Source: a bacterium | GTDB lineage: Bacteria; UBA8248 | Assembly: GCA_965204535.1 (NCBI GenBank) | Contig: CBDBEV010000001.1 | Location: 2,784,001-2,848,000, forward strand | DNA: 64,000 nt | Direction: 5' to 3' | Part shown: in pieces, positions 7,943 through 60,288 of the stretch | Position numbering within the stretch: the stretch's first letter is position 1 | How the letters are laid out: each line of letters starts with the position of its first letter | Notes under the pieces: model-generated | Told to the model about the DNA's origin: nothing | Database searches by the model: none | Seen by the model: only the letters and a program-made list of their open reading frames with translations | Made by a program: the position numbers and the translations under genes

Positions 7943-8181
7943 GGGGCTGTTGAAAACCCCCTGAGAGGGGAATGGCAACCCTCTGAAAGGGAAACCCCTA
8001 AAGGCAACCCCCCCTACCCCCCCTTGTCAGGGGGGTATAAAAAGTCGATGCGCCCCCGCTGGGCCGAGGGGGGTTTTGCTTTTTCTTGCCCCCCTGACAA
8101 GGGGGGGTAGGGGGGGTTGGTTTTCCCGTCAAGAGGGGCGTCCTCTCTACCCCCGAAAAAGGGGACTTTTTCCACAGCGCC
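7943..8181. mobile_element. IS1182-end MITE carrying a CCCCCCTACCCCCCTTGTCAGGGGG palindrome pair
   Basis: ends GGGGCTGTTGAAAA / TTTTTCCACAGCGCC; flanks GGACC/GGACT. Confidence 0.75.
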
Positions 8182-8206
8182 GGACTGTGGCGGATCAGGG
8201 ACGCAT

Positions 8207-8635
8207 CTAGACGTCCAGGTGCTCGTAGATTTCGACGACCATCCCGCCCTTGATGACGCCGTCGCTCAGGTGGCCTGCCAGGACTTTCTCGGGCTCGCCC
8301 GGCCCGCCGCTGATGGCCATGTGCACGTGGACGTAGGGCTGGGGTTCGTCCCAGGTCACGTCGCCGAGAGCGAGGGGCGGTTCGTCCGGCCAGGTGATGT
8401 TGCCGAGCGCCACGAGTTCGCGCCAGCCCTCGAAGTGCAGGCGGTCGACGTCGTAGCCGTCCATGCTCTTGAAGCCCGATATCATGTCCGTCTCGGCAAG
8501 GGCGCCGATGAGGAAAACCGAACCCGCGCGGATGTTCTTCTCCTTCACGAGGTCGCACAGGTTCGTATAGAAATTGTCTCCGGCCTCGAGCGTGACGCGG
8601 AAGATGCGGCCGATTCTCTTCTCTTCTACTCTCAT
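8207..8635 (-). CDS. PPC/DUF296 domain protein
   Basis: IGAL, ELVALGNI, YVHVHMAI, LAGHL. Confidence 0.85.
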   Translation of the reverse strand: MRVEEKRIGRIFRVTLEAGDNFYTNLCDLVKEKNIRAGSVFLIGALAETDMISGFKSMDGYDVDRLHFEGWRELVALGNITWPDEPPLALGDVTWDEPQPYVHVHMAISGGPGEPEKVLAGHLSDGVIKGGMVVEIYEHLDV

Positions 8636-8671
8636 TTACGCCTCCTTGTCGGATGATGATGGAGCCGGTTT

Positions 8672-9532
8672 CTAGCGCTCAGAGACGACCTCGTCATAAA
8701 GCCGTTCGAGACCGTCGCGGAAGGTGTCTTTTCTCTGCTGGAGCCAGTATTCGCCGCGCGTTTCGTCGGCGTGGAAATAGGTGAGGAATTTCGGGTCCTG
8801 GACGGCTTCGTCTTTTTCTTTTCCGGCGGCGACGACCTCGACCATGATCTCCATCATCCCGCTCAGGGTATTTTTGAGTTTTGTGGCCACTTCCTTGCCG
8901 CATATCTCCCCGTGGCCGGGGACGATGGTCTCGATATCGAGGCCCTCCACCCAGGCGAGCGCCTCAATCCACTCGCGCACGAAGGCGTCGCGCATGCCGG
9001 CCGAGGGGCCGTTGATCACGACGTCGCCTGCGAAGAGCACGCCCTCCTCGGGCACGAGGACGGAGGTGCACGCCGGGGAGTGGCCGCCCTTGCGGTGAAT
9101 CTCGAACGTGAGCGGCGGCAGGTGCAGCGTGAGGGTGTCTTCGAAGCAGAACTGGGGAAGCGGGACGGCGGCGTTCGTGATCTCGTCCGCCTCCTCGGTG
9201 AAGCCCAGGTCTCTCAACGTATTCACGAAGATTTCCTTGGAGAATGCGTTGTCGCCCTTCGATATCTCGTCGTAGACGAATTGGGGGGCGATGAGCGCCA
9301 CGTCTCCTTCGATGAACGAGGAACCCGTGGTGTGGTCGCCGTGGTAATCGGTGGCGATGAGGTAGCGCACGCCCTGCGGGCTTAGAGCCGAGACCTTTTC
9401 CTGCCAATCGCGCGAATCGCTCGGCCGCACCGGGCAGTCGAGGAGGACGACGCCGCACTCGGTGACGGCGGCGCCCACGTTCGCCCAGTCGTAGTCGGTC
9501 TCTGCGTATAGATGCTCGGACAGGCGCTTCAT
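8672..9532 (-). CDS. MBL-fold hydrolase (cyclase-like)
   Basis: TDYHGDH, GGHS, FAGD, VPGHG; start MKRLSEH. Confidence 0.85.
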   Translation of the reverse strand: MKRLSEHLYAETDYDWANVGAAVTECGVVLLDCPVRPSDSRDWQEKVSALSPQGVRYLIATDYHGDHTTGSSFIEGDVALIAPQFVYDEISKGDNAFSKEIFVNTLRDLGFTEEADEITNAAVPLPQFCFEDTLTLHLPPLTFEIHRKGGHSPACTSVLVPEEGVLFAGDVVINGPSAGMRDAFVREWIEALAWVEGLDIETIVPGHGEICGKEVATKLKNTLSGMMEIMVEVVAAGKEKDEAVQDPKFLTYFHADETRGEYWLQQRKDTFRDGLERLYDEVVSER

Positions 9533-9643
9533 GGCGGTCTCTCTTTCCGGTTGACGTGAATGAGGATGTTCGCGCAAGAATACCCCCAAGCATCCGCTCC
9601 GGCAAGACGCTCATACACTTTGGTGAAGGGGAGGAAACCCGTT

Positions 9644-10459
9644 TTGGAACTCATACTCCTGGGCGTGGGCGCGCCGCCGCCTACTCCCCAGAAAAGCGGT
9701 CCGTGCAACGCGCTCGTCAAGGGCGGGGAGCTCTATCTGGTGGACGCCGCCCGCGGCGCCGCGACCCAGATCATGAAGTCGGGCTTTCACGTCAGCAAGG
9801 TGGACCACCTGTTTTTCACGCACTTTCACTCCGATCACTACACGGGTTTCGGCGAGTTCTTCATCTCGCGATGGATCATGGGCGCATCGACGCCGCTCAA
9901 GGTCTACGGGCCTTCACCCGTCGAGGAAATCGTCGAGCGGATGCTCCGCTATTATGAGTACGACATCGATCTGAGGGCGGAGGAGGGAAAGCCCAGGGCG
10001 GGAAGCGATATCGAGGTGTCCGTCCTTGCGCCCGGCGATGCGCTCGAGGTGGACAGCATCGGAATCCGCGTTGACAAGGGCACGAATCACGGCAACGTGG
10101 ACGACATCGTCTCCTACGCGTTCGAGGCGGAGGGGAGAAAGATCGTCATTGCGAGCGACGGCAGTCCGACGGAGAAGCTGGTTCCTCTGGCGCGGGGGGC
10201 GGACGTGCTGGTCATGCACCCCTGCCTGCCGGAACTCATCAACGAGAATTACGGGAGTTTCAGGGCCACGGCGAAGATCGTGGCGGCCCACCACGCCACG
10301 GCGGAAGAAGTCGGGAGAACCGCCGCCGAGGCCGGCGTCGGTAAACTCGTTTTCTCGCACGTCGTCCCGCCCCTGGCGCCGAACGATAAGGTGAGCGAGG
10401 CGATAGCCTCTTATTTCGACGGCGAAATCGTCGCAGGCCAAGATCTGATGCGGCTGTGA
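9644..10459 (+). CDS. MBL-fold hydrolase, RNase Z/AtsA-like
   Basis: LLGVGAP, THFHSDH, FSHVVP; TTG start after GGAGG. Confidence 0.85.
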   Translation: MELILLGVGAPPPTPQKSGPCNALVKGGELYLVDAARGAATQIMKSGFHVSKVDHLFFTHFHSDHYTGFGEFFISRWIMGASTPLKVYGPSPVEEIVERMLRYYEYDIDLRAEEGKPRAGSDIEVSVLAPGDALEVDSIGIRVDKGTNHGNVDDIVSYAFEAEGRKIVIASDGSPTEKLVPLARGADVLVMHPCLPELINENYGSFRATAKIVAAHHATAEEVGRTAAEAGVGKLVFSHVVPPLAPNDKVSEAIASYFDGEIVAGQDLMRL

Positions 10460-10476
10460 GGCGGATGTCCTCTCCG

Positions 10477-10730
10477 AGGTCTGCTGAAAAAGCCCTCATC
10501 CTCAGGGGATAAAGGCAACCCCCCCTACCCCCCCTTGTCAGGGGGGCAAGAAAAAGCAAAACCCCCTCAACCCTGCGGGGGCGTATCGCCTTTTTATACC
10601 CCCCTGACAAGGGGGGGTAGGGGGGGTTGGTTTTCAAGGCGAGAGCCTGCGCCGCCGTCCGGTTTCGGGTTTTGGCCGTCATTCCGGCGGTGGACAATTC
10701 CGGGCCTGTGCGGACTTTTCCAACAACCCC
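10477..10730. mobile_element. IS1182-end MITE with palindrome cargo
   Basis: AGGTCTGCTGAAAAAGCCC ... GGACTTTTCCAACAACCCC; no matching target duplication. Confidence 0.65.
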
Positions 10731-10859
10731 GGGCAGGGCGCATTTGCCGGATGCAACGTAATCGCGCTTGTGGCATACTCCCCCCATCCAGTTCAAGAAA
10801 AGCGTTTACTCTTTCGTGAGGCAAACTGTCTATTTTCATTTTCCGAGAGGAGAAACAAG

Positions 10860-11870: not shown

Positions 11871-11970
11871 GTTTTTTCGGTTCGTTGCCTAAGGCTGCGG
11901 GGGCGTGTGATTGGCCTCCGCAGCCTTTGTTTTGCCGTATCGAAGCACGAGACTTGTTGGAGTATGAAGG

Positions 11971-13056
11971 GTGGCTGAACTGAAGATCACGAAGATAGAG
12001 GCGAAATCTCTCAAGGTGCCCCTGGCCCGCGCGATAGGAAGCGCGAACAGCACGAAGTCGGAACTCGATTATCTGGTGGTCTTCCTCCACACCGAAAACG
12101 GCCCGACGGGCTGCGGCTTCGTGATGGGCCTGGGCGGGGAGACCTCGACGACGCTCGTTCCCTACATCGAAAAGGAACTGGCGCCCCTGGCGGTGGGCCG
12201 GGACGCCCTGGCGCCCGAGGCGCTCTGGGCGCGTCTGTGGGGGCCGAACAAGCCGAGGATGCGCGGCGGGCTGGGCGTACAGGCGCTCTCGGCAGTAGAT
12301 ACCGCCTGCTGGGACGCGCTCGCCAGGGCGTCGGGGTTGCCTCTCTCCCGCATACTGGGCGGCTTCAGGAACGAGGTTCCCGTCTACGGCAGCGGGGGCT
12401 GGCTCACGTTCACCGACGCGGAGATGGTGGATGAGTGCATGGGCTTCATGGAGAAGGGAATCGGCGCGTACAAGCTCAAGCTGGGCACGAACCGGGATGA
12501 GGAGCGAATCCGCCTCTTGAGAGATGAGGTCGGCGATTCGGTCGTCCTGTTCACGGACGCCAACCAGAAGTACAACCCGCGTGAGGCGCTCGAGATGGCC
12601 GCGATGCTCGCCGAATACGACGTGCGATGGTTCGAGGAGCCCGTGCTTGCCGATTCGGTGGACGATCTGGCGGACGTGGCCGAAAGGAGTCCCGTACCCG
12701 TCGCCGCCGGTGAAAACGCATATATGCGCTGGGGCTTTCGCGAAATCTGCGAGAGGCGGGCGGCGGCGTATCTCCAGCCCGACGTGGGCCGATGCGGCGG
12801 CGTGACGGAGTTTCGTAAAATCGCCCATCTGGCGGATTCTTATAATCTCTCGCTGTGCGCGCATCTCCTCCAGGAGGTATCGGTAAGCCTCCTCGCCGCG
12901 ACGCCGAGCGGCTATATGGTGGAATACGTGGAGATGCTGCCTCCCGATACGCTCACGCGGGAATTCCCCGTGGTGAGCGGCTGCATGGCGGTTCCGGACG
13001 TCCCCGGGCACGGTGTGGAATTTTCTGAGGAGGCGATACGGCGATATGGCGCTTGA
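11971..13056 (+). CDS. mandelate racemase/muconate lactonizing enzyme family
   Basis: AVDTACWD, KLK, DANQ, WFEEP, GEN, QPD. Confidence 0.9.
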   Translation: MAELKITKIEAKSLKVPLARAIGSANSTKSELDYLVVFLHTENGPTGCGFVMGLGGETSTTLVPYIEKELAPLAVGRDALAPEALWARLWGPNKPRMRGGLGVQALSAVDTACWDALARASGLPLSRILGGFRNEVPVYGSGGWLTFTDAEMVDECMGFMEKGIGAYKLKLGTNRDEERIRLLRDEVGDSVVLFTDANQKYNPREALEMAAMLAEYDVRWFEEPVLADSVDDLADVAERSPVPVAAGENAYMRWGFREICERRAAAYLQPDVGRCGGVTEFRKIAHLADSYNLSLCAHLLQEVSVSLLAATPSGYMVEYVEMLPPDTLTREFPVVSGCMAVPDVPGHGVEFSEEAIRRYGA

Positions 13057-13057
13057 G

Positions 13058-13232
13058 GAGGTTGTTGAAAAAGCCTGGATGAGGAAGGGTTTGGCACGAG
13101 CGGGGAGAAGGACGGTTTTTTGTAGGGGACGCATAGTATGCGTCCCTGCCGTTTCGCCGCCCGGCGCGGGTCGCATATATGCGACCCCTACACACAAGAG
13201 ATCCGCCCGATAGAGGCTTTTTCAACAGCCCC
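13058..13232. mobile_element. IS1182-end MITE carrying a GTAG REP doublet
   Basis: GAGGTTGTTGAAAAAGCC ... GGCTTTTTCAACAGCCCC; perfect 5-bp duplication TTGAG (13053-57, 13233-37). Confidence 0.85.
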
Positions 13233-13248
13233 TTGAGGAGGAGGTAGC

Positions 13249-22508: not shown

Positions 22509-22715
22509 TCCGGCGCTTCCCGTCATCATCATGATCGCTCGCCGGAACCGGCTGCGGAAATTGCAACAGGGGCTGTTGAAAATCCTGATTTCGTGATTCG
22601 GCGTATGGAGCTAACCGAGAAGAGTGGAAAACCTCATTTGCTACTTCTTCGATCGCATTTAACCTTTGAGGGTTATGGCCGACTCACAAGAAAGGGAATT
22701 CACTCCCCCCTTGAG

Positions 22716-24231
22716 GGGCCTGTTGAAAAACCCCTGGTTTTGTGATCGTATGGATGTATTCCCCCTCGCCCGAGATGGGAGTTCCGGAGATGTTGGACCG
22801 CAAGAGGCGCGAGCAGATGGACTTGTTCGTGGCCGGCCCGCTGGAGAAGTTGATTCCCGAAGATCACATATTGCGCCAGGTGGACCGCGTACTGGATTTG
22901 AGTTGGCTTCGCGAGGAAGTGGCGGAGTGCTATTGCGCGGACAACGGTCGACCGGGGATCGACCCGGAAGTGGTGATCCGGTTGATGCTGGCGGGCCTGC
23001 TGCTGGGCTACGCGGAGGACCGCCGCCTGCTGCGCGAGGCGCAGGCGCACCTGGCGATCCGGTGGTTCATCGGGTACAGGCTGGACGAGGATTTGCCGGA
23101 TCATTCGAGCCTGACGCGTATCCGTCAACGCTGGGGGGAGGAGCGGTTCAAGGAGATATTTCGGCGCACGGTTCAGTCTTGCGTGGAGGCGAAGGTGGCG
23201 AAGGGAGAAGTGGTTCACATGGACGCGTCTTTGATACGCGCGGACGTGAGCTGGGAGAGTCTGGCGGAGCGCCACGCGGAGAAGGTGGTGCGGGAGAACG
23301 ACTCGGAGGATGAGGGCGGGAAGAAGGGCGGCGGCGGGGGTTCGGGTCCGGTGAGCCGAACGGACCCCGACGCGCGCCTGGCGCGCAAGAGCGCTCGGGC
23401 GGGGTTCGAGCCGAGCTACAAGCACCACGCGGTGGTGGACGATGAGCGTGGGGTGGTTCTCGACGTAGAGGTGACGGAGGGGACGTTGAACGAGCGGGAG
23501 ATGATGGAGCCGCAGTTGGATGCGGTTTGCGAGCTCACGGGTCGCGCGCCCGCGGTGGTGACGGCGGATAGTGGTTATGCGTATTCGAAGGTGTACGGCG
23601 CATTGGAGCGTCGGGGGGTCGCCGCGCTGATACCGGCGAAGAAGGAACCCACCCAGAGCCGGGTGCCGTTGCAACTGTTCCGCTACGACGAGCGGAATGA
23701 GGTGGTGAAGTGTCCGGGGGGCAAGACGCTGCGCCCCCGGAAGGAGACGGAGCGGGGGCGCTGGTATGTATCGAGGACCCGCGATTGCGCGGGGTGCGCG
23801 CTCAAGGCCGATTGTCTGTCGGCGTCTCGCACGAGCAGGGCGGTTCTGATTCCGCACGAGTATCCGGCGCTGTTGCGCGCGCGCCGTCGCCACGCGCGCC
23901 GTGGGGAGGAGGAGGGTCGGCTGTGGCGGCGCCACATGGGTCGCTCGGAGGGCTATCACGGCGAGGCGAAGAGTCGGCACGGACTGGCGCGGGCGGTACG
24001 CCGGGGTCTTGCGAACGTGAAGATCCAGGCCTACCTGACGGCGACTGCGGTGAACCTCAAGCGGCTCGCCGCCGCTGTGGCCGCGGGTTTATTCGCTCTG
24101 TGGCGGGCCTGGGCCGCCCGGAAACGCCGAATGAGCGCATATCGCGGCCTCACGCGCCGATTGGGCTTCCTCTCCCAGGCCGCGTGAGCCGCCATACATC
24201 CCGCTTCAAAACGGGGTTTTTCAACAGCCCC
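22716..24231 (+). mobile_element. IS1182-family element A, intact (1516 bp)
   Basis: terminal IRs GGGCCTGTTGAAAAACCCC / GGGGTTTTTCAACAGCCCC around a transposase. Confidence 0.9.
22790..24187 (+). CDS. IS1182-family transposase
   Basis: IPEDH.LR, GRPGIDP, PDHSSL, TDPDA, ADSGY, C..C..C, EG..GEAK..HGL.R. Confidence 0.9.
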   Translation: MLDRKRREQMDLFVAGPLEKLIPEDHILRQVDRVLDLSWLREEVAECYCADNGRPGIDPEVVIRLMLAGLLLGYAEDRRLLREAQAHLAIRWFIGYRLDEDLPDHSSLTRIRQRWGEERFKEIFRRTVQSCVEAKVAKGEVVHMDASLIRADVSWESLAERHAEKVVRENDSEDEGGKKGGGGGSGPVSRTDPDARLARKSARAGFEPSYKHHAVVDDERGVVLDVEVTEGTLNEREMMEPQLDAVCELTGRAPAVVTADSGYAYSKVYGALERRGVAALIPAKKEPTQSRVPLQLFRYDERNEVVKCPGGKTLRPRKETERGRWYVSRTRDCAGCALKADCLSASRTSRAVLIPHEYPALLRARRRHARRGEEEGRLWRRHMGRSEGYHGEAKSRHGLARAVRRGLANVKIQAYLTATAVNLKRLAAAVAAGLFALWRAWAARKRRMSAYRGLTRRLGFLSQAA

Positions 24232-24500
24232 CTCAAGGGGGGAGTGATTGTAAAGCACACGATAAGGAGGGGAGCGATGTCTCCTCCCGCCTTGGTCGGA
24301 AATAATGCCGGAATGACAGCAATCCCGGTATTGTAGGCTTTTTCAACAGCCCAACCCCTCGTCCCCGAAGTAGTCGAAATCCTGTCCGTAAACCTGCAAA
24401 GCCGCATCTGCCGCGTTCCGGCCTGAACCGGGCCGCAACTTGCGCCGCGAAGGGCACGGGTGGGAAGATGCGCCCGTTTTGAATCGACACCCTGAGAAAG

Positions 24501-38320: not shown

Positions 38321-39248
38321 GGAGCCGGCCCCGCGCCGCGCCTCTCGCCCTGAAAGGACAGCCCCTCCTCGGGGCTGTCCAACCCCCCCTACCCCCCCTT
38401 GACGGGGCTGTTGAAAAACCCCTGGTTTTGTGATCGTATGGATGTATTCCCCCTCGCCCGAGATGGGAGTTCCGGAGATGTTGGACCGCAAGAGGCGCGA
38501 GCAGATGGACTTGTTCGTGGCCGGCCCGCTGGAGAAGTTGATTCCCGAAGATCACATATTGCGCCAGGTGGACCGCGTACTGGATTTGAGTTGGCTTCGC
38601 GAGGAAGTGGCGGCGTGCTATTGCGCGGACAACGGTCGACCGGGGATCGACCCGGAAGTGGTGATCCGGTTGATGCTGGCGGGCCTGCTGCTGGGCTACG
38701 CGGAGGACCGCCGCCTGCTGCGCGAGGCGCAGGCGCATCTGGCGGTCCGGTGGTTCATCGGGTACAGGCTGGACGAGGATTTGCCGGATCATTCGAGCCT
38801 GACGCGTATCCGCCAGCGGTGGGGGGAGGCGCGGTTCAAGGAGATATTGCGCCGCACGGTTCAGGCGTGCCTGGACGCGAAGGTGGCGAAGGGAGAAGTG
38901 GTTCACATGGACGCGTCTTTGATACGTGCGGACGTGAGCTGGGAGAGTCTGGCGGAGCGCCACGCGGAGAAGGTGGTGCGGGAGAACGACTCGGCGGATG
39001 AGACGGGGAAGAAGGGCGGTGGCGGGGGTTCGGGTCCGGTGAGCCGAACGGACCCGGACGCTCGCCTGGCGCGCAAGAGCGCTCGGGCGGGGTTCGAGCC
39101 GAGCTACAAGCACCACGCGGTGGTGGACGACGAGCGTGGGGTGGTTCTCGACGTAGAGGTGACGGAGGGGACGTTGAACGAGCGGGAGATGATGGAGCCG
39201 CAGTTGGATGCGGTTTGCGAGCTCACGGGTCGCGCGCCCGCGGTGGTG

Positions 39249-41030
39249 GAGACTGTGAAAGTATTCCCACGATTCTGGTGGGTGACGCTGGCGAGCGATG
39301 CCCGGGTTGTCTGTACATGCTATCTTTACCGGTGAGTGAGATAACCACATAAAGGGTCACCACCATGTCCGAGAGACGTTATCAGGAGGTGCAGTCCCGA
39401 AGCCAGATGATGCTGCTTCCGCCGTGTCTGGACGACTACGTGTCCGAGCACAATGCGGTGCGCGCGATCGATGCGTTCGTCGGCACGCTGGACCTGGAGG
39501 CGCTGGGGTTCGCGCATGCCGAAGCGAACTGCGGCGCCGGTCAGCCGGCTTTCGACCCGGCGCTGCTGCTGAAGCTGTATCTGTACGGCTACCAGCACCG
39601 GGTACGGAGTTCGCGCCGTCTCGAAGCGGAGACGCGGCGCAATCTGGAAGTGATCTGGCTGTGCCAGGGTGCGACGCCGAGCTACAAGACGATTGCGGAT
39701 TTTCGCAAGAACAATGTGGCTGCGCTGCAGGAGGCCAACCGGGAGTTCGTGCTGCTGTGCCGCGAACTCTCGCTGCTGGGCGGCAGCCGGGTGGCGGTCG
39801 ACGGGACTTTTTTGAAGGCCGATGCGAACCTGGACAGCTTCCAAACCAAGCGGTCCCTGGCAAGGGACCTGAGGCGTTTGGAGAAGAGGATTGCGGCGTA
39901 TCACCGGCAGTTGGACGAGGCGGATGCGCGCGGGGAGGAGTGTGGGGACGGTTCGGAGGATCCGGACCTGCCGGTGAAGCTCAAGGCCTTGATCGAGAGG
40001 CAACAAAAGAAGAAGGCACTGCAAGAGCATTTGCAGGAAAGCGGAGAGCGTCAGGTATCGGGGGTCGATGCAGATGCTCGACTTCTGAGGAACGGCGATA
40101 TAATGGTGGGCGGATACAACTGCCAGATCGCGGTGGACGACAAGCACAAGCTGATTGTCGCGGAGGATGTGGTGCAGGACGGCAATGACTCCGCTCAGTT
40201 GGAGCCGATGATGACGAAAGCCGGCGAAGCCATGGGCAGCGAACGCCTGGTCGGCCTGGCGGATTCGGGCTACTTCAACGGCGCACAGTTGAAGAGTTGC
40301 GAAGACAAGGGAATGGAGGTGTATGTTCCGATACCGAACCAGACGGCCCGCAAGGGCAAGGACGGACGATTCGGCAGCGATGAATTCCGTTACGATGCGC
40401 AGGATGACACGTATGTCTGTCCGGCCGGAGAGCGTCTGGTTCGAGGCGGCACGACCACCGTCAGGGGCAGGCTGTATTACTTTTATCGCGGGACGGCGGC
40501 GGTTTGCCGGGACTGTTCGTTGTCGGGCCGATGCCTGACAAAGTCGAGATCGACGCGCAGGATACAACGCTGGGAGCATGAGGACGTGGTGGACCGGCAT
40601 CGCAAGAAGATGAACGCCCGTGTGCCATTGATGCGCGGGCGAAGCACACTCGTCGAACATCCATTCGGTACGATCAAGCGCTGGGCGGGGATGGATCATT
40701 TTGTGATGCGCGGACTCGGCAAATGCCGCGGCGAATTCAGCCTGATGACGCTGGGTTACAACTTCAAGCGGGTCATGCGTGTGCTGGGCGGAGCTGCATT
40801 TGTGGAGCATTGTCTGCAAAAACAGCGGTTGGGGACGAATGGCGTGTGAACTTGAAGCCGATTCTTCGAGGACTTGACCGCGACCCCGAGCTGACCGGCC
40901 GCCGAGACGTTTCTCTCCCGGCTCTGCGGTGTTGTTGCTCCCGAAGTTGAAGACAGTGTCCGGCCATCGGGCTGCAAGCGTAAGCGAGCCCTGTTCCGGA
41001 GACTGTGAAATCCAATACTCTCACAGTCTC
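39249..41030 (+). mobile_element. IS1182-family element B (1782 bp)
   Basis: IRs GAGACTGTGAAAGTATT / AATACTCTCACAGTCTC; duplication CGCGGTGGTG (10 bp, or 8 bp if the ends are one base longer). Confidence 0.9.
39365..40849 (+). CDS. IS1182-family transposase (distinct subgroup)
   Basis: VRAID.FV, SSRRLE, TIADFR, VDGT, GYN.Q, ADSGY, VEHPFGTIK. Confidence 0.92.
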   Translation: MSERRYQEVQSRSQMMLLPPCLDDYVSEHNAVRAIDAFVGTLDLEALGFAHAEANCGAGQPAFDPALLLKLYLYGYQHRVRSSRRLEAETRRNLEVIWLCQGATPSYKTIADFRKNNVAALQEANREFVLLCRELSLLGGSRVAVDGTFLKADANLDSFQTKRSLARDLRRLEKRIAAYHRQLDEADARGEECGDGSEDPDLPVKLKALIERQQKKKALQEHLQESGERQVSGVDADARLLRNGDIMVGGYNCQIAVDDKHKLIVAEDVVQDGNDSAQLEPMMTKAGEAMGSERLVGLADSGYFNGAQLKSCEDKGMEVYVPIPNQTARKGKDGRFGSDEFRYDAQDDTYVCPAGERLVRGGTTTVRGRLYYFYRGTAAVCRDCSLSGRCLTKSRSTRRIQRWEHEDVVDRHRKKMNARVPLMRGRSTLVEHPFGTIKRWAGMDHFVMRGLGKCRGEFSLMTLGYNFKRVMRVLGGAAFVEHCLQKQRLGTNGV

Positions 41031-41711
41031 CGCGGTGGTGACGGCGGATTCGGGCTATGCGTATTCGAAGGTGTATGCGGGATTGGAGCGGCGGGGGGTG
41101 GACGCGGTGATACCGGCGAAGAAGGAGCCTTCCCAGAGCCGTGTTCCGCTGCAGTTGTTCCGCTACGACGAGCGGCACAAGGTGGTGAAGTGTCCGGGGG
41201 GCCAGACGCTGCGCCCCCGGAAGGAGACGGAGCGGGGGCGCTACTATGGTTCGAGGACGCGCGATTGCGCGGGGTGCGCGCTGAGGTCGGATTGTCTGCC
41301 CAAGTCGCACACGAGCAGGACGGTTCTGATTCCGCATGAATATCCGGCGCTGTTGCGCGCGCGCCGCCGGCACGCGCGCCGGGGGGAGGAGGAGGGCCGG
41401 CTGTGGCGCCGCCACATGGGGCGCTCGGAGGGCTACCACGGCGAGGCGAAGAGTCGGCACGGACTGGGGCGGGCGGTACGCCGGGGTCTTGCGAACGTGA
41501 AGATCCAGGCCTACCTGACGGCGACTGCGGTGAACCTCAAGCGGCTCGCCGCCGCTGTTGCGGCGGGTTTATTCGCCCACTGGAGGGTCTGCGCCGCCCG
41601 GAAACGCCGAATGCGCGCATATCGCGGCCTCACGCGCCGATTGGGCTTCCTCTCCGCCGCCGCGTGAGCCGCCATACCCCCTGCTTCAAAACAGGGTTTT
41701 TCAACAGCCCC

Positions 41712-42240
41712 TTGACAGGGGGGTATGAAAAGGCGGCGCCCGCCACCGAGATGAACACAAATTCACTCCCCCCTTGAGGGGGTTGTTGAAAAAGTCCGAG
41801 GAGTGAGTGTTCGACGTGAGGGGGGTGTAGGGATAGGTCGCGACCTGTCCCTACGGACGAATACGGCCGGGGAGGGTCTGGTCGTCCTTTCACCTCGATC
41901 CGCAATGTTCCCGTAGGGGCGGCCCCCTGTGGCCGCCCTGCCCCGTGGCTACGCTTCGCAGGGACAGGCACGGGGGCCTGTCCCTACAAACCCTTTACTT
42001 GCAGGGTGCTGTGCGGACTTTTTCAACAGCCTCCAAGGCGGGAGTGAATCCTTTTTTTGCGGGGGTTGCTTTTTTTACCCCCCTGTCAAGGGGGGTAGGG
42101 GGGGTTGGTTTTCAAACCGGCGGGCGGCCTCATTCGCCGTAGCGAAGCCTCGCCATCGCGCCTGCGCTGCGTGAACCTCCATGCCGCCGATCCCGAAACG
42201 GGGTTTTTCAACAACCTCGTCAAGGGGGTTAGGGGGTTGA
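41712..42240. repeat. nested palindrome/MITE cluster; 41908-42164 duplicates 42988-43242 including the recombinase 3' end
   Basis: direct alignment; TCATTCGCCGTAGCGAAGCCTCGCCATCGCGCC present twice. Confidence 0.8.
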
Positions 42241-42653: not shown

Positions 42654-43190
42654 CTCTCGCCCTGAAAGGACAGCCCCTCCTCGGGGCTGTCCAACCCCCC
42701 CTACCCCCCCTTGACAGGGGGGTATGAAAAGGCGGCGCCCGCCACCGAGATGAACGCAAATTCACTCCCCCCTTGAGGGGGAGTCAGTGAGCTAGGGGCG
42801 TAAGCCCCGCAAGCGAACTGGTGGGGGGAGTTTTTTCTGTGGCATGTCCCCCCACCGAATCGGCCTTCGCCAAGGCTCGGCCTCTTCGTCGGGCTTTCCC
42901 CTCGGGAAGCCCGACCCTCAAGGGGCTGTTGAATAACCCCTCGTCGAGCGGAATTGATTGCCGGAATGACAATCAAAAGCACATTCACCCGTAGGGGCGG
43001 CCCCCTGTGGCCGCCCTGCCCCGTGGCTACGCTTCGCAGGGACAGGCACGGGGGCCTGTCCCTACAAACCCTTTACTTGCAGGGTGCTGTGCGGACTTTT
43101 TCAACAGACCCTCAAGGGGGGAGTTGATCTTTTTTGGCGGGGGTTGCTTTTTCATACCCCCCTGTCAAGGGGGGGTAGGGGGGGTTGGTT
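42654..43190. repeat. nested palindrome cluster containing MITE 42922-43110
   Basis: CTCAA duplicated at 42917-21 and 43111-15. Confidence 0.8.
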
Positions 43191-43209: not shown

Positions 43210-44271
43210 TCATTCGCCGTAGCGAAGCCTCGCCATCGCGCCCTGTTTCGCGAGCTGGCCCTGCGCGTAGCGCCCCGGCATGGTCGGCGACTGCCAGCGC
43301 CCGGCGATTTGCATCTCGACCAGCGACGCCCCCGCCGTGGCCAGGCTCTGCGCGCTGCCCACGCGCAGGCTGTGCCCGCTGATGCGCCCCTCCACGCCCG
43401 CGTCCCGGGCGCGCTGGATGATGATGCGCCGGATGCTCCTCTCCGTCAGGCGGCCTTCCCGCAGCCGGCCCCCCTTGAACAGCGGCCGGAACAGCGGCCC
43501 CTTCGTCAGGCCTGCCTCCAGAAGCCAGGACCGGACGCGCGCCACCGTCGGCTCGCCCAGAAACTGCACGACGCCCTCGCCCTCCTGGTCCGTCTTCGAG
43601 CGGCGGATCAGCACCGTCTGCTCGTCGAGGTCCACGTCCTCGATGTCGAGCGCCTCGACCTCCGACACCCGGAGCAGGGCGTCGCTCGCCACCGCCACGA
43701 TCGCCGCGTCGCGCAGGCCCCCCAGGGTCCCCGTCCCCTCGGCCAGCGCCGCCGCGCGGTCCGCCTGCTCCCAGCGCACCCCCACCACCTGGCCGCGGCC
43801 GCGCTCTGCGGCCAGGCGCCTGAAGCCGGCCAGCACCCGCTCCGAGGCCGCCCCCGCCGGAGAGGGCCGGCCGTTCAGCTTCGCCCGGAAGCGAAGCGCC
43901 GCGACCGCCATCGCGGCCACGGCCGCCGAGTGCCCCTGTTCGTAGAGATCCCCCAGGTACGCCGCTATCCCGGCGTCGGTCTCGGGGTTTCCCGAGCGCT
44001 CGAACCTCCGCAGGGCCGTCTCGTACACTCGCCGCGTGTTCTTAGACATCGACGCCTTCGCCAGGTCGGCGGCCGCACGGGCCGGTCGGGCCGGCCTTCT
44101 CGTCAAAGCGATGTCCTGTTCTGGGTCGGGCGGTGTTGCCCCAGTCGTCATGGCGAGAAGCCAACCTTCTAGGTCAGCGGCCGTTTCCATTCCCTGAGGC
44201 CGTCCGAGCGCCTCGTTACGCTCAAGGGCCTCGTCAAATACCGAGTATAGACGACGGCGGGAAATTTCCAA
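43210..44271 (-). CDS. Cre-like tyrosine recombinase
   Basis: RDAA..LR.SE, RRSKTDQ, GHSLRVG, GRW, terminal RY; start uncertain (44271, 44190 or ~44151). Confidence 0.92.
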   Translation of the reverse strand: MEISRRRLYSVFDEALERNEALGRPQGMETAADLEGWLLAMTTGATPPDPEQDIALTRRPARPARAAADLAKASMSKNTRRVYETALRRFERSGNPETDAGIAAYLGDLYEQGHSAAVAAMAVAALRFRAKLNGRPSPAGAASERVLAGFRRLAAERGRGQVVGVRWEQADRAAALAEGTGTLGGLRDAAIVAVASDALLRVSEVEALDIEDVDLDEQTVLIRRSKTDQEGEGVVQFLGEPTVARVRSWLLEAGLTKGPLFRPLFKGGRLREGRLTERSIRRIIIQRARDAGVEGRISGHSLRVGSAQSLATAGASLVEMQIAGRWQSPTMPGRYAQGQLAKQGAMARLRYGE

Positions 44272-44757: not shown

Positions 44758-46791
44758 ATGACGTTCAGAGAGAAACCGATAAACAAGCTTTACGCTTTCG
44801 CGCTGGCGGCGCTCTTCGCGCTGACGCTGGCGGGCTGCGGCGGTGGCGGCGGCGGGACGACTGCCACGCCGGACTCGGAGCCGCCACCGATGCCGACGGC
44901 TTACGAGCAGGCGGTTGCGGCAATCGCGGCAGCCGAAACGGCGGAAGCGGCACAGGCGGCCTACGATGCGGTGGACCAGGCTGCTATTACTGGCGCAGAG
45001 TCGCAGAAGCTGCAGGCAGCGCTTGACGACAAACTGGATATGCTGGCGACAGCGATGCGCGCGGCAGACCAGAAAAAAGCGCTGAGTACGGCAGCCGGGG
45101 AGATAGATACCTCCGACCTGTCCACTCAGGAAGCGGTTGACGCCGCACGGACCGCCATCGCAGGGCTTCGGCAGGCGCTGGCCGACGCGGAAGACGTGAG
45201 CGATGAAGACAAGGCGATGTACATGTCGCAACTCGACGACGCCGTGGCTGCCGTGGACGAGGCGCAGGGCGGGATCGACACCGACGAGCGCCGGACGAAC
45301 CAGACGGCGGCATTGACGAGCGCTTCCGGGACCCTCCAGGCGGCCCTCGCGGCGCTTTCCGGCTCGACGCCAACGCAGGCGCAGCTCGACGCCGCCACCG
45401 CCGCTCTCGCCGCTCTGAACATGGCGATTGCGGATGGCGCAGACTTGACCGACGCGGAAAAGGCTGCGTATGTGCGAGAGGCGGCCAATGCGGCGGCGCC
45501 GATCCAAACGGCGCAAGCCGCCTTCGATAAGGCCAAGGACGCTGCCGACGACCAGATGAAGAAGGACATGGCCGCCAGCGGCAAAGCGTTGCACAAGGCG
45601 TTGACGACCGATCCGCTGGATTTCCTGGACGACGATGTCGCAGTATCCCTTGCGGCTAGCGGACTTATGGTGAACCCGAATGGAACTGCCGACGATACCG
45701 ATGGGCTAGCCTCCGTCCCCTTGAAGGCCAGCGGTTCGGCCGGATCGTTGGACGGCTGGAGCGGGATGAACTATGCCCATATGGATTCGGGCACGAAGGT
45801 CGCCAACTCTGCCGTGGTTTACACGAATCAAGGTGCGCCGACGACGGAGACCTTCGCTAGTGAATACGGGACCGGTGGTGATTCAGTGACCGAGGGTACC
45901 TACACCCCGGACAACCGTCGTCTGGCGATTGACGTATCGGCGACCGCCAATAGCAAAAAAATGAAGAGTTCGAGGTTCCCGACGGTTGGAAGCCAAAATT
46001 TCCCACCTGCGCAGTCGGGAGGCAGCGAAGTGTCGTTCTCGGGCACATATGACGGAGCGTCCGGCACATACCTGTGCACTACGGCCAATGCTGCCAATGG
46101 TTGCGCTGCCACGTATACCCCTACCGGAGGAATAACGCTCACCGGGACCTGGATATTCACCCACGCGGTCGGTGCGATGGTGTCGAGGGCAGACGGCGAC
46201 TACCTGTATTTCGGTTGGTGGTTGCGCAAGGACAAGGACGACATGCCGACGCATGCCAGCGCGTTCTCCGGTGTGGCGGGAACGGTAGCGGCCCCGACCG
46301 TCAGTTACACTACCCTTGCAGGCTCCGCGACCTATGTCGGCAAGGCGGTCGGAAAGTTCGCTCTGAGCAACCCGCTCGACGGCACGGGCAACGCCGGCCA
46401 CTTCACGGCGGACGCTACCCTGACCGCCAAGTTTGGGGCGAACGAGGCGCCCACCAACGGTGGTGTTACCGGAGTGATCGAAAACTTCATGGCCAACGGT
46501 GCCTCCGTGCCGTGGAGCGTGAAGTTGAATCGCGCTGCATGGGGTGACACCGGCTCGTTCGCCCCCGCGGATGATGCTACCACCACAACTGTTGACGAGT
46601 CGGTGACCGCCGGCACAGTTTGGTCAATCGACGGCAACGCGGCGCCGGCGTCCGGCATCTGGAGCGGTCAGATGTATGACGAGAAAGCCAGGGACGGAAG
46701 TGACGTTCCGACCACGGCCATCGGCACGTTCCAGTCCGAGTTCAGCAGCATCGGCCGCATGGTCGGCGCCTTCGGCGCGAACAAGCAGTAG
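44758..46791 (+). CDS. surface lipoprotein: Ala-rich helical stalk plus TbpB/HupA-like C-terminal barrel
   Basis: lipobox LAGC then poly-Gly; YLYFGWW, ATYVGKAVG, terminal VGAFGA; AGGAGG RBS. Confidence 0.8.
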   Translation: MTFREKPINKLYAFALAALFALTLAGCGGGGGGTTATPDSEPPPMPTAYEQAVAAIAAAETAEAAQAAYDAVDQAAITGAESQKLQAALDDKLDMLATAMRAADQKKALSTAAGEIDTSDLSTQEAVDAARTAIAGLRQALADAEDVSDEDKAMYMSQLDDAVAAVDEAQGGIDTDERRTNQTAALTSASGTLQAALAALSGSTPTQAQLDAATAALAALNMAIADGADLTDAEKAAYVREAANAAAPIQTAQAAFDKAKDAADDQMKKDMAASGKALHKALTTDPLDFLDDDVAVSLAASGLMVNPNGTADDTDGLASVPLKASGSAGSLDGWSGMNYAHMDSGTKVANSAVVYTNQGAPTTETFASEYGTGGDSVTEGTYTPDNRRLAIDVSATANSKKMKSSRFPTVGSQNFPPAQSGGSEVSFSGTYDGASGTYLCTTANAANGCAATYTPTGGITLTGTWIFTHAVGAMVSRADGDYLYFGWWLRKDKDDMPTHASAFSGVAGTVAAPTVSYTTLAGSATYVGKAVGKFALSNPLDGTGNAGHFTADATLTAKFGANEAPTNGGVTGVIENFMANGASVPWSVKLNRAAWGDTGSFAPADDATTTTVDESVTAGTVWSIDGNAAPASGIWSGQMYDEKARDGSDVPTTAIGTFQSEFSSIGRMVGAFGANKQ

Positions 46792-47099: not shown

Positions 47100-47960
47100 G
47101 CCCGCATCCCTGCCCTGAAAGGACAGCCCCTCCTCGGGGCTGTCCTGCCCCCCCTACCCCCCTTGACGGGGTTGTTGAAAAACCCTCCGGTGGGGAAGGA
47201 ATCCCGATCATCGAATTGTTCACCGTAGCAAGGACAGGCCCCGGCGCCTGTCCGAGGCCCCCGTGCCTGTCCGTGGCCCTCGCGCCCTTGCTGTATCCGG
47301 GTGAATACGACCGACGGGCGGCCACGGGGGGCCGCCCCTACAACTGCGGCGCGTAATCGCTGTAGGGACAGGTCGCGACCTGTCCCTACGGGGTGTCGCT
47401 TCCTCGGTCGGTTCGATTGCCCTCTCACTTGTTGAAAGGCAACCCCCCCCTACCCCCCCTTGACAGGGGGGTAAGAAAAAGCAAGATCTCAAAAAAGGAT
47501 CAACTCCCCCCTTGAGGGTCTGGCTTCCCGAGGGGAAAGCCCGACAGAAGCCGAGCGGTTTGTGCGAAGGCTGATGCGGTGGGGGGACATGCCACAGAAA
47601 AACTCCCCCCACCGAATCGCTTGCGGGCTTACGCCCTTAGCTCTTCGTCTGGCTTTCCCCTCGGGAAGCCAGACCCTCAAGGGGCTGTTGAAAAAGCCCT
47701 GATGAACGCGGGTTTTGCGCGACCGAGGAGGGGCGGTTTTGTAGGGGCCGCATACATGCGGCCCTTGTAGTGGGCAAAAAAAAATCAGGGTCGCATATAT
47801 GCGACCCCTACATACAAACAAATTTTCCTCTCGGGGGTTTTTCAACAACCCCCTCAAGGGGGGAGTGAATTTTCTCTCTCGTCGGTCTGTTATATACGAC
47901 AAATCCAGAGTTCCAGGCTTTTTCATACCCCCCTGTCAAGGGGGGGTAGGGGGGGTTGGT
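47100..47960. repeat. nested palindrome cluster containing MITE 47681-47852
   Basis: TSD CTCAA (47676-80, 47853-57); interior homologous to 13058-13232. Confidence 0.85.
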
Positions 47961-51509: not shown

Positions 51510-52054
51510 CACAGGGGGCTTTTTCAACGGTCCCCTTGCCGGTCGGTCGGGATTCCACCGCAGGGACAGGCCCCTGTGCCTGTCCGTATGGACTCGAAAA
51601 GCAACCCCCCCTACCCCCCCTTGTCAGGGGGGTATAAAAAGGCAACCCCCCGCAAAAAAAGATCAACTCCCCCCTTGAGGGTCTGGCTTCCCGAGGGGAA
51701 AGCCCGACGGTGAGGTGAGGGGGTTTTTGTTTTTCCTTGCCCCCCTGACAAGGGGGGGTAGGGGGGGTTGCTTCCAAACAGGGAATGGATTTCTCGATTG
51801 ACGTAGACTTATGAATCAACTCCCCCCTTGAGGGGGAGTCGGCAAGACGAGGGCGAAGCCCGAAGTCGCGCCGGTGGGGGGAGATGCCACAGAATAAATC
51901 TCCCCCCACCGATTCAGCCTTCGCACAAATCGCTCGGCTTCATCGACTCCCCCTCAAGGGGGGAGTTGATTTGAAATTCTTGAGGAGTGAAGTCTCCCTC
52001 TCCCCGATCGGCTACATACGCCGAATCACGAAATCAGGCCTTTCTCAACAACCC
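51510..52054. repeat. palindrome/MITE-end cluster
   Basis: palindrome pair 51604-51769, intact second-type element ~51818-51968, MITE end at 52054. Confidence 0.8.
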
Positions 52055-52175
52055 CTCGCGCCCCGGATGCGCCGCGCTTCCGCCCGTCGCGCATTTTCGC
52101 GCGAACCCTGATACAATGGCTGCTGCAATATCCATCGCCCGCCACGAGAGATCATCGCCCCGGGAGAATCCCCGC

Positions 52176-55340: not shown

Positions 55341-55564
55341 GGGCGATTCGCGCCGCCGTTATTTCCGCAGCAACCGCTTTTTCCTTTTTCATTAAGCCAT
55401 CGCTCCCCCCTCTATAAGGGTCAAACCCGATCGGAGAGGGACGTTCCGACTGCCGGGGAAGAGAATATCGTTCAATATCTCATCCCGCAGCCGCGCGCAG
55501 GGGTATCGAGTCCACTGTAGGGACAGGCCCCCGTGCCTGTCCGAAGTCGCGACCTGTCCCTACG

Positions 55565-55785
55565 GGGAGTGTTGAAAAAGTCCCTGAGAGGGGAATGGTA
55601 ACTTCTTGAAAAGCAACCCCCCCTACCCCCCCTTGTCAGGGGGGCAAGAAAAAGCAAAAGCCCCTCAACCGGCGGGGGCATATCGCCTTTTTTACCCCCC
55701 TGACAAGGGGGGGTAGGGGGGGTTGCCTTTCTATCCGAGAGGGGCTTCTCCTCTACCCCTGAAATGTGGGCTATTCAGCAACCCC
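55565..55785. mobile_element. IS1182-end MITE inserted at a REP end
   Basis: TSD CTACG (55560-64, 55786-90); interior homologous to 7943-8181. Confidence 0.8.
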
Positions 55786-55822
55786 CTACGGGTGCGGCGG
55801 CCGGGATGATGCGTCGCTCCCC

Positions 55823-56605: not shown

Positions 56606-56747
56606 GTTCAAACTCTCCTTCTCGTCTTCGCCCGCCGCGCCGGGCGGACGCCTTGTTGAATGGAATGAATGGAATTGTCCTTGTGGTCTTTCACCAGAGG
56701 CCGCATTCTCACACACGACGCGTCGTTTTGCCAGACCGCCGCGAGAT

Positions 56748-57584: not shown

Positions 57585-57824
57585 GAAAAACCTTTCTTCG
57601 GGTGCCAGATCGTCGTCGGGGCGCTTCGGGAGGCTTCGGGAGGCGATGCGTCTTTGGGACTCGCTTGTCCTGCCTTGCGCTGATGGGGCCAGAGTCTATT
57701 ACAGGATACGGGCGAAAGACAATTTCATGCGGCGAATATCTCCTTGCGCTCGGGTTTCACTCCCGCATCGTCGGACGAGTAAAATCACAATCATGGAAGA
57801 ATGGTTTCGCCATAAATCCCTTCA

Positions 57825-58108
57825 GGGGTTGTTGAAAAACCCCGCAAAGGATGGTTTGACCCGACCAATCAGAGAGGGCGTGCCGACTCCGCTTTTGTTC
57901 GTCATTCCGGCGCATGCCGGAATCCAGGCGGACGGGAATGGAAGAAGGCGAAAATGCGGCGTCCGATACGGATGGCTGGTTTCCCTCGACCCCAGGTATT
58001 CGCATCGGCTCTGGATTCCGGCATGCGCCGGAATGACGAGCAAGGCGAGAACCATTCCCTCATCTCCATATGACAAATCGCGAAAATCAGGACTTTTTCA
58101 ACACTCCT
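57825..58108. mobile_element. MITE carrying a GTCATTCCGGC-type palindrome pair (57901-58037)
   Basis: GTCATTCCGGCGCATGCCGGAATCCAG ... CTGGATTCCGGCATGCGCCGGAATGAC inside TGTTGAAAAA/TTTTTCAACA ends. Confidence 0.7.
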
Positions 58109-58148
58109 TCTTCGGTCGTGTTTGACCCCTGAGCAACCCGCCGCTCCG

Positions 58149-58284
58149 CCTCACCCTGAGTAGCGGCGAAGCCGTGTATCGAAGGGCGAGATTCGCGCTC
58201 GCCGCAGAAATGCGCCTTTTAACCCTCCCTCCACGGTCGGCTCAAACCTTCGATACGGCGCTCACGCGCCTACTCAGGATGAGG
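58149..58284. repeat. CCTCAYCCTGAG-type palindrome pair (half copy near 48000)
   Basis: CCTCACCCTGAGTAG..GTATCGAAGG ... CCTTCGATAC..CTACTCAGGATGAGG. Confidence 0.75.
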
Positions 58285-58598
58285 TTTTGTGGCCGCCTGC
58301 GCGGTATGAAAGAGGACCGCTGTAGCAGGGCGGTCTCCAATGATCGCCCTGACCCCCCGTGGCCGCCCGCATCGGATATGTCCATCCGCGTGGTTGCGCT
58401 TCATGAGGACAGGCACAGGGGCCTGTCCCTACGGCCCCCTCCCTGGTCGGCTCCATACTCCGAATCACGAAATCAGGCTTTTTCAACAACCCCCTCAAGG
58501 GGGAGTGAGAGAGACCCTGACAGTTTCGCAAAACCTGCCCTTCGGGGTAGAATGGATTGTTCGGGATAAATAACCACCTTCTTCGGGAGGATGTGAGA

Positions 58599-59678
58599 AT
58601 GATCGTTCCACTCGATACGCCGGTGGCGACGCGGGCCGAGAATTTCAGGAAAGTCCTCGATTTCGATGAATCGGCCGCCTACCGCGCGCTCCAGGAAACC
58701 AAGAAGGAATACCCCGAAGCGGAAGTCCCGCCGCTTCGCAGCCCCAGGCTCAAGAGAGAGGACAGGAGCCTCGTGGCCATGGTGCGCGGGGAGACGCGCG
58801 ATGAGGCCATACGCCTGGCGGTGGAGAAACTGGGCGGGGTCCGGCATATCATCGATTCGCCAGCACCCGCGCTCCTGAAACCCAATTTCAACTCCGCCGA
58901 TCCGTTCCCGGCCTCGACGCATCCCGATACGCTCGAGACCGTCGTCGCGCTGCTGAAAGAGGCGGGTTGTGAGGAGCTGGCCGTGGGCGAGATGGGCGGC
59001 CTGCTCTCCCTGCCCGCGCGGGGGAATTTCGAGCGCTGGGGGATGAACGATTTCCAGGAGCGAACGGGCGTTGGCCTCCTGCGCTTCGACGAGGAGCCCT
59101 GGGTGAAGGCCCGGGTTCCTGGGGCGATCCGCTGGGGCGGCTGGGTGCACTGCATCGAGCGCCTGATGACGCCCGGCCAGCACGTCGTCAACCTGCCCAC
59201 CATGAAGAGCCACGGCGGCGGGCCGCGCTTCAGCCTCTCGCTCAAGAACGTCTACGGGTTCGTGCACCCGAGGGACCGCGTCCGGGCGCATTTCGTATCC
59301 CAGATGGCGGAGATGATCATGGAGACGAACCTGTTGTATTCGCCCTCGCTGATCGTGCTCGACGGGACGAAGTGCTGGATTTCGGGCGGCCCCTACACCG
59401 GCGAGGAGCGTGCGCCGAACGTGATCATCGCAGGGGACGACAGAATCGCCGTGGACGTCGTAGGGGCGTCCGTCGTGCGGGCCATGGGCTCCGAACTCCT
59501 GCGCGATTATCCCGTCTGGTCGCACCGGCAGATCAGGCGCGCGGTCGAACTCGGGCTCGGTGCGAGCGGGCCTGGAGAAGTCGAAATCCTCGCCGAGGAC
59601 ACGACGGGCGCCGCCGATTTCACGGAGCTTTCCGATCAGGTGCATGCGTTCGCCGGGGAGCCGGATCCGGGAAGTTAA
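58599..59678 (+). CDS. DUF362 domain protein
   Basis: LLKPNFN, THP, NLPTMKSH, SLKN..G, D.IAVD. Confidence 0.85.
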   Translation: MIVPLDTPVATRAENFRKVLDFDESAAYRALQETKKEYPEAEVPPLRSPRLKREDRSLVAMVRGETRDEAIRLAVEKLGGVRHIIDSPAPALLKPNFNSADPFPASTHPDTLETVVALLKEAGCEELAVGEMGGLLSLPARGNFERWGMNDFQERTGVGLLRFDEEPWVKARVPGAIRWGGWVHCIERLMTPGQHVVNLPTMKSHGGGPRFSLSLKNVYGFVHPRDRVRAHFVSQMAEMIMETNLLYSPSLIVLDGTKCWISGGPYTGEERAPNVIIAGDDRIAVDVVGASVVRAMGSELLRDYPVWSHRQIRRAVELGLGASGPGEVEILAEDTTGAADFTELSDQVHAFAGEPDPGS

Positions 59679-59775
59679 GGAAGTTTTATCCTGCTCCTTC
59701 CCGCGTTGACGCGGAAGCGCGGTTTCCGCTACATTCCTTCGCACCCCTCGGGGAGTCAGGAAATTCCACCTGTAT

Positions 59776-59851
59776 GGGGCTGTAGCTCAGCTGGGAGAGC
59801 GCATGACTGGCAGTCATGAGGTCAGGGGTTCGATCCCCCTCAGCTCCACCA
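59776..59851 (+). tRNA. tRNA-Ala (GGC)
   Basis: GGGGCTGTAGCTCAGCTGGGAGAGC, anticodon arm CATGA-CTGGCAG-TCATG, GGTTCGATCCC, encoded CCA, G3:U70. Confidence 0.97.
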
Positions 59852-59987
59852 AATAAATCAATGACATAGAGGATTTTGCTGTCAGGCGAATTTCTCGACG
59901 TCCGTTTTTATGCCTGTTACATCAATAGACAGCGACAGTTTGGCGATTGGCGCCGGGATTCCTGCGAGGATCTAATTGTCCCGGTTC

Positions 59988-60288
59988 AAGGTTGTTGCAA
60001 AAGCCCCTGAGAGGGTAATGGCGACCTCCTTGAAAGGGAAATCCCATAAAACCAACCCCCCCCTACCCCCCCTTGTCAGGGGTCAAACGCGAGTGATGAA
60101 CGAGCGTTTGCATGAGCCATTGACGAGAAACACAACGTCTTGCAAAACCTCCCTCTTCGGTCGGTTTTGACCCCTGACAAGGGGGGGTAGGGGGGGTTGG
60201 TTTTCGACGAGGGAGGTCAGGGGTTCGCGCGAAAGCGGTCTTCCCGCTAAAGGCAATACCCCACGACAAGGACTTTTTCAACAACCCC
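59988..60288. mobile_element. IS1182-end MITE with palindrome pair
   Basis: TSD GGTTC (59983-87, 60289-93). Confidence 0.8.

Follow-up and report, generated by a model that had tools for sequence, protein, structure and literature searches.

Bacterial MITEs (miniature transposable elements with inverted repeats) such as Correia/NEMIS, RUP, ERIC and Nezha are described as non-coding units of 70-300 bp with terminal inverted repeats of 15-30 bp, on which an end-recognising transposase acts (PMC3733652, PMC3184786). In the NIMEs (mosaic elements of neisserial intergenic regions), built from dRS3 and RS repeats, a recombinase acting at dRS3 has been hypothesised (PMC1797815). The spread of palindromic repeats that have no dedicated transposase is treated as an open question in PMC3733652, which also leaves open whether the CGTC repeats are moved by RAYTs (transposases associated with repetitive extragenic palindromes, REPs) or by other transposases. 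Here we analyzed a window of 64,000 nucleotides (G000:C2:2784001-2848000) from the 4.56-Mb genome of a bacterium, designated G000, in which short elements are bounded by the ends of an insertion sequence (IS) of the IS1182 family, referred to as element A. They are similar to the MITEs above in length, in non-coding content, in their terminal inverted repeats and in having a transposase that appears to recognise these ends. Their interiors, however, have no consensus and are replaced at fixed sites; they are mosaics of at least four unrelated palindrome families, namely GTAG, poly-C/poly-G, GTCATTCC and CATCCTGAG. We tentatively propose that the IS1182 ends are self-refreshing frames and that one DDE transposase is the main carrier of several palindrome families: the junction would stay in place across species and the contents would be exchanged as part of the cargo is itself a target of the transposase, a reading that we hold with somewhat less than even confidence.

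The ends were called with a position weight matrix (score of at least 14), with the reversed genome as control, and 710 matches were obtained in G000 against 11 in the reversed sequence. They make up 184 short left-right pairs (up to 700 bp, mostly 150-350 bp) and 26 full IS1182 copies. The short elements appear to consist of non-coding cargo, as judged by size and content, between element A ends of 15-19 bp. Within the genus, 16 of the other 22 genomes have 33 to 457 matches each to the end motif, and the 28 genomes searched from other genera have no more than two each; these counts are confounded by kinship, the end-free genomes being the most distant ones. In a tree based on 19.6 kb, G000 and its relatives G002, G016, G011 and G012 form one clade with full support. 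Sequence related to G000 was found mainly in sponge metagenome runs (a habitat reading that leaves out runs with small word shares), and the bacterium is sponge-associated. An assembly artefact was rejected, since contigs of the X19 and X21 runs, probably the source sample, span six element junctions with 0 differences.

The short elements have inserted as whole units. An earlier, sequence-only reading had listed five perfect 5-bp duplications, and all of them are present, around the elements at 13058-13232 (GTAG doublet, TTGAG), 42922-43110 (GTAG modules, CTCAA), 47681-47852 (GTAG doublet, CTCAA), 55565-55785 (poly-C doublet at the end of a GTAG repeat, CTACG) and 59988-60288 (poly-C doublet, GGTTC), as is the TTGAC around the IS copy at 38404. 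They are real but not typical, as they represent the best cases and most short pairs lack a duplication. Genome-wide, a perfect one surrounds 25 of the 184 short pairs against 2.3 expected (maximum 7 in 300 permutations), or 44 against 6.2 (maximum 15) when a one-base register shift is allowed, so that the predicted excess over chance holds. Elements devoid of a perfect duplication in the window include those at 7943-8181, 10477-10730, 41779-42033 and 57825-58108. The length of the duplication is fixed at 5 bp by cases with unlike adjacent bases (TCATC, GAGAA). The right end of the 42922 element contains three C's, which puts its register one off with respect to the 15-mer, and the end at 55785 is degenerate.

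Empty sites, which the same reading had asked for in relatives, were found with one 5-mer for four of the five listed elements. The 13058 site is empty, with a single 5-mer, in five of nine relatives (seven of eleven when judged by length), those of 42922 and, cleanly, 59988 in G002, and that of 55565 in G016 and also, with one change, in G003; the 55565 element itself is also found in G011. No orthologous site of 47681 was recovered in the relatives. Conversely, two elements of G011 have empty sites, TGCAA and, with one change, CCGCG. It is shown by these comparisons that elements entered empty sites as units, duplicating 5 bp. Insertion into extruded hairpins was also considered and rejected, as inverted 5-mers are not enriched (5/184 against 3.0 for short elements and 2/26 against 3.6 for IS copies).

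The autonomous element is represented by a full IS1182 copy of 1516 bp (22716-24231, + strand), flanked by TTGAG and CTCAA with no duplication. Its transposase ORF, placed at 22790-24187 by the sequence-only reading, starts from a GTG at 22742 (22742-24187, + strand, 481 aa), and the protein is indeed an IS1182 transposase (NF033551, 347 bits against a cut-off of 270; DUF772 and DDE_Tnp_1_6). Element A has the terminal inverted repeats and the short target duplication of the IS1182 family: 16 of the 26 full copies show a perfect 5-bp duplication (4.4 expected), the other 10 having no strict one, and 46 of 77 IS loci in the relatives also show it. The copy at 22716-24231 is nested in the poly-C palindrome of an outer short element (22569-24353, ends in the order left, left, right, right, or L,L,R,R). 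At this site the poly-C palindrome doublet is uninterrupted in G011; the IS stands in place of the whole loop of the doublet, from the TTGAG arm to the CTCAA arm. Another copy (38404-41711, + strand, TTGAC duplication) is split by a second IS1182, which has other ends (39249-41030, + strand, NF033551 397.5 bits) and a repeated CGCGGTGGTG on its flanks. A further interrupted copy of 3308 bp lies at C2:1234261-1237568, with TATCA flanks when shifted by one base, and the second IS1182 occupies the same base in both. The two 3308-bp copies are identical in the middle, which is the insert, and their element A arms differ at 91 positions toward both ends; this graded identity indicates that homologous exchange between copies occurs.

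The target preference is broader than the TTGAS bias proposed earlier. The outer 5-mers of the 710 ends are mixed (TTGAG 75, CTCAA 30, TTGTC 26, GACAA 23, TTGAC 6) and set in a quasi-palindrome of 25 bp, defined from the IS copies as a C-rich part, 5 bp and a G-rich part and bearing AA/TT close to its edges; the sites preferred by the IS in one relative are of the AAACGC...GCGTTT type. When scored with a matrix trained only on IS copies of the relatives (34 distinct targets), 20 of 25 reconstructed short-element targets exceed the 99th percentile of the genome. Since both the ends and the target profile match, we infer that the short elements are tied to the element A transposase, which would act on them in trans. 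A strong target is present inside 83 of the 184 short elements, and 154 of the 544 strong targets fall in the 1.07% of the genome that these elements cover. Target scores at junctions have medians of 11.5 and 12.8, against 5.8 for the 99.9th percentile of the genome. The target is common in poly-C cargo, and the GGGG/CCCC tips rebuild a good target at each junction, so that a new copy is apt to insert into an old one or next to it. Among the 52 ends of IS copies, 46 adjoin a palindrome half-site and 34 lie inward of another end facing the same way, and several right ends are followed by a left end 4-8 bases further on.

An important feature of these elements is that their interiors are replaced while their junctions persist. 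Turnover was counted for ends in unique DNA only (354 of the 710, with repetitive outer flanks, were dropped) and within 1.36 Mb fetched from G002 and 0.88 Mb from G011, ends beyond these being dropped too, as were 29 of 98 (G002) and 12 of 50 (G011) where the aligned flank did not come within 10 bases of the junction. In G002, which is 95.7% identical, 52 of 69 testable ends have a counterpart at the very same base, as do 31 of 38 in G011, and the sequences diverge within 26 bases of the tip at 28 of these 52 and 19 of these 31 ends. Rare end variants are held in common in 25 cases against 3.4 expected (maximum 11 in 5000 permutations), agreement at the C/T position 5 of the end reaches 0.81, and 0.93 where the interior is kept, against 0.44 in random pairs, and the sharing of variants drops from the tip inward (14/35, 6/16 and 5/33). 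Taken together, these data indicate that the ends were inherited and do not result from repeat insertions. Moreover, a match of at least 45 bases to the replacing sequence stands behind another end elsewhere in 30 of 36 and in 40 of 47 cases.

The clearest example is the 13058 site, filled in exactly the five-genome clade and empty in seven genomes outside it. It is one ancestral insertion now holding three cargoes, GTAG in G000, poly-C in G002, G012 and G016, and CATCCTGAG in G011. Its right flank is TTAAG or TGAAG in the four relatives that hold the element, and the perfect duplication in G000 therefore does not date the interior. The insertion site (13053-13057 / 13233-13245) overlaps a stop codon and the ribosome-binding site of the next gene, and its right side is TTAAGGAGG in three relatives, possibly a selected change. 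The junction at C2:959229 is common to six genomes with at least four different fillings. The element at 7943-8181 (poly-C/poly-G doublet, decayed duplication GGACC/GGACT) has the same junctions in G011 with a GTAG interior and is absent from five other relatives. The cluster at 57825-58493 (GTCATTCC doublet, order L,R,R, inner right end at 58108, beyond which come a TCTTC half-target and then the older interior) shares its left junction with G011, G012 and G016, among which three interiors are found, and is absent from G013 and G008. Finally, the junction at 52055, one of two right ends (tips 51534 and 52055; 51513-52055, - strand) around poly-C modules, is common with G002 and has a different interior there.

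These results do not support the earlier description of the elements as a MITE family in the sense of fixed units. As in MITEs, they are short and non-coding, have inverted repeats in common with an autonomous IS, and show duplications and empty sites. However, their sequence is not homogeneous, as only 31 of the 184 short elements have a twin at 90% identity or more and 54 have none passing the k-mer filter, and they are not internal-deletion derivatives of the IS, sequence of which is kept past the repeat at only 5 of the 658 non-IS ends. Twins do exist: for example, the 47681-47852 element has twins of 0.94-0.97 identity at three other sites with their own duplication at each, and the 42922-43110 element has one of 0.90. 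A family of fixed units, in which differing interiors at one site would come from independent hot-spot insertions, would benefit from these twins as well as from the strong target preference and the targets re-created at junctions. Nevertheless, rare variants and decayed duplications recur at orthologous ends much more often than chance would give, a single clade is filled at 13058, and a strict duplication is present in only 8 of the 31 twins with different flanks. This explanation is largely refuted and we regard it as very improbable.

We consider it somewhat probable that the main route of interior replacement is insertion into an old copy followed by collapse of the ends. A new copy would land at a target inside an old element, producing same-facing ends, that is direct repeats. 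One end and part of the old interior would then be lost in a deletion that joins these ends or two repeated palindrome arms. Its probable cause is slippage helped by a hairpin, a process for which there is in vitro work on direct repeats flanking a hairpin (PMC13465473). The outcome would be a hybrid end and a new interior behind the old host junction, and any left-right pair could then transpose and spread the new mosaic. Such a route predicts inner ends next to half-targets, hybrid ends and old duplications in the outermost position, and all three are seen. Of the 366 end clusters, 26 are of the L,R,R type, 15 of the L,L,R type and 14 of the L,L,R,R type. Half a transposase target adjoins the extra inner end in 32 of the 80 short cases. 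Of the 61 clusters with the order L,L,R or L,R,R, 20 have a single end that agrees in at least four of five bases with the flank of the outer end opposite (7.5 expected, maximum 17), and 7 have an inner pair with a perfect duplication (1.5 expected). Pairs of tandem and hybrid ends were found at C2:516287 and, in the window, at 13232 and 10477. The element at 10477-10730 (poly-C doublet and a GTCATTCC half, hybrid left end) has two left ends about 50 bp apart in G012 and G016 and one in G000 and G002, which combines the outer letters of the first end with the inner letters and interior of the second. At 13232 and 10477 the tandem state is present in both subclades of the tree and is thus likely ancestral. 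In addition, the GACAA target immediately inward of the left end at C2:966353 is still intact in G002, and G000 has the replaced form.

An alternative is that the elements do transpose, with gene conversion or template switching exchanging their interiors. The transposase, a repeat nuclease or the processing of a hairpin would break the DNA at an end or in a palindrome, and another element would serve as the repair template through the 15-20-bp end homology, in a manner similar to P-element replacement. Several observations speak for such an exchange: breakpoints are concentrated where the end gives way to the interior, donors exist elsewhere and the genome has three candidate nucleases. Others weigh at the same time against insertion and collapse. 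The tandem state at 7943 is found in G016 alone, with an extra inner right end and a further module, and its two ends carry the same rare variant, which fits a duplication by recombination better than an insertion. The 91 positions of graded mosaicism between the IS copies are conversion-like. Further points count against insertion and collapse only. The tandem intermediate is kept at only 1 of 53 early-diverging junctions compared pairwise (shared stretch of at most 45 bases), an automated search for pre-insertion states returned 6 of 70, mostly noise, with only C2:516287 convincing by eye, and the read contigs, confounded by repeats, yielded no usable joints within the population. On the other hand, conversion accounts poorly for the half-targets next to inner ends, for the duplicated inner pairs and for the tandem state that looks ancestral at two sites, and 15-20 bp is a short homology for RecA. 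As the main route, conversion seems to us possible but rather unlikely, and both it and insertion followed by collapse may operate.

The cargo itself is closely associated with the ends. Palindromes are found in 254 of the 289 intergenic gaps that bear an end and in 134 of the 1667 that do not, with gaps defined from crude longest-ORF gene calls. Of 462 palindrome clusters, 338 lie within 300 bp of an end and 124 do not; by family, the proportion near an end is 223/248 for poly-C, 179/270 for GTAG and 104/146 for GTCATTCC. Among the end-free clusters, the relative has an end in 10 of 33 orthologous comparisons, and some clusters are missing in G002. In these elements the REP doublet is not itself the inserted unit, as the insertion extends from one end to the other and has a 5-bp duplication, although end-free doublets may still be REPINs (hairpins formed by REP doublets).

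The sequence-only reading had reported no RAYT or other repeat-associated nuclease, and none was found among the 55 window ORFs scanned, whereas the genome has three candidates. A RAYT-like gene (L001, G000:C1:983506-984099) lies amid GTAG repeats and scores above the cut-off of Y1_Tnp and, with 63 bits, under that of NF047646 (80). GTAG repeats also occur within its reading frame, and an upstream tandem repeat contains the IS-targeted AAACGC...GCGTTT. A DUF559 gene (L002, G000:C2:1233581-1233967) is located between poly-C doublets and a small GIY-YIG gene (L003, G000:C2:927523-927840) between GTCATTCC repeats. Both are arranged like RAYT genes between their REPs; our literature search returned nothing on DUF559/poly-C or GIY-YIG/GTCATTCC pairings.

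It could be that RAYT, DUF559 or GIY-YIG enzymes of their own move the palindromes into passive resident MITEs, each nuclease gene being flanked by one palindrome family. The clusters remote from any end, some of them missing in G002, agree with this, and so does G007, in which 88 GTCATTCC palindromes occur along with a GIY-YIG-like frame (one TGA being read through), with no end match and no transposase match. The GTCATTCC family can consequently spread without the IS, which is one vehicle and not the only one. Yet whole cargo-bearing elements entered empty sites with 5-bp duplications, interiors are replaced from the end inward rather than merely enlarged by a palindrome, and poly-C clusters are mostly near an end. 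Moreover, G012, G016 and G002 have 214-553 poly-C matches and no DUF559 match for the query used, which fits carriage by the IS or gene loss. The cross-genome GTAG pattern caught mainly one subtype and says nothing on the absence of GTAG from the RAYT-bearing G001 and G007. Independent movement into passive elements is, in our opinion, hardly probable as a general explanation. The earlier proposal that a DDE transposase spreads palindromes as cargo is retained in part, given the inserted cargo-bearing units and their common target profile, and the transposase is not the sole vehicle. The palindromes probably had nucleases of their own when they arose and are now carried as passengers.

Other features of the window include a short element (41779-42033) in which GTAG modules sit within an arm of a poly-C palindrome and the right part of which is nearly identical to that of 42922-43110, an extra right end (42197-42218, - strand) and an unpaired left end after a CCCCCTTGAC half-target (47168-47189, + strand). 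A DarT-like ORF adjoins a NADAR antitoxin ORF at 3062-4276 (PF14487, PF22397), likely a toxin-antitoxin or anti-phage pair. A tyrosine recombinase ORF (43210-44271) and a 677-aa ORF with no Pfam match (44758-46791) belong to a stretch with many partial copies in the genome. Elsewhere in G000, a 66-bp tandem duplication in the C1:1421299 region includes a whole end and its outer flank, and an end pair with a TTTTG match surrounds a 3413-bp multicopy element (C2:2472911-2476659). A candidate gene cargo at C1:1142485-1143981 (ends, GAGGA match, 280-aa ORF) was rejected as a resident gene, because it has the same left neighbour by coordinates in G002, G016, G011 and G014.

Carriage between IS1182 ends would be a concrete and testable route for the spread of palindromic repeats. 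If our proposal is correct, CGTC-type and poly-C repeats, which have no known transposase, are carried in a feedback loop between cargo and target. A MITE interior and its insertion can differ in age, and dating or classing elements by the interior or by the target duplication can therefore mislead. The results also offer an explanation of how mosaic intergenic arrays form and a target profile, drawn from the data, for an IS1182 transposase, within one genus (16 of 22 other genomes) and with each single step being familiar chemistry. In the literature searched (titles and abstract beginnings, with most subscription papers and ISfinder outside), we found neither REP-carrying IS1182 MITEs nor in-place replacement of interiors.

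Each of the described systems resembles this one in part. IS movement without target duplication has been described beside deletions (10.1101/2024.06.02.596822), to which the 10 of 26 copies without duplication may be compared; the rearrangements in that account are large, unlike the exchange of an interior with both junctions kept. REPINs and RAYTs with their GTAG and CGTC repeats (PMC3116915, PMC3733652) have a counterpart in the GTAG and GTCATTCC doublets and in the GTAG-flanked RAYT-like gene, whereas DDE ends and 5-bp duplications delimit the units inserted here. The NIMEs, as presented in PMC1797815, likewise form syntenic arrays of varying content with short flanking inverted repeats. 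However, the flanking repeat in the present case is the end of an IS, for which there are a transposase gene and target duplications; the dRS3-like GTCATTCC repeats lie inside as cargo, dRS3 being the frame in NIMEs. Finally, IS1397, IS621 and IS1594 land in palindromic repeats (PMC3184786), as does element A at 46 of its 52 ends, but here the targeted palindromes are also found inside the element's own non-autonomous relatives, closing a loop between cargo and target.

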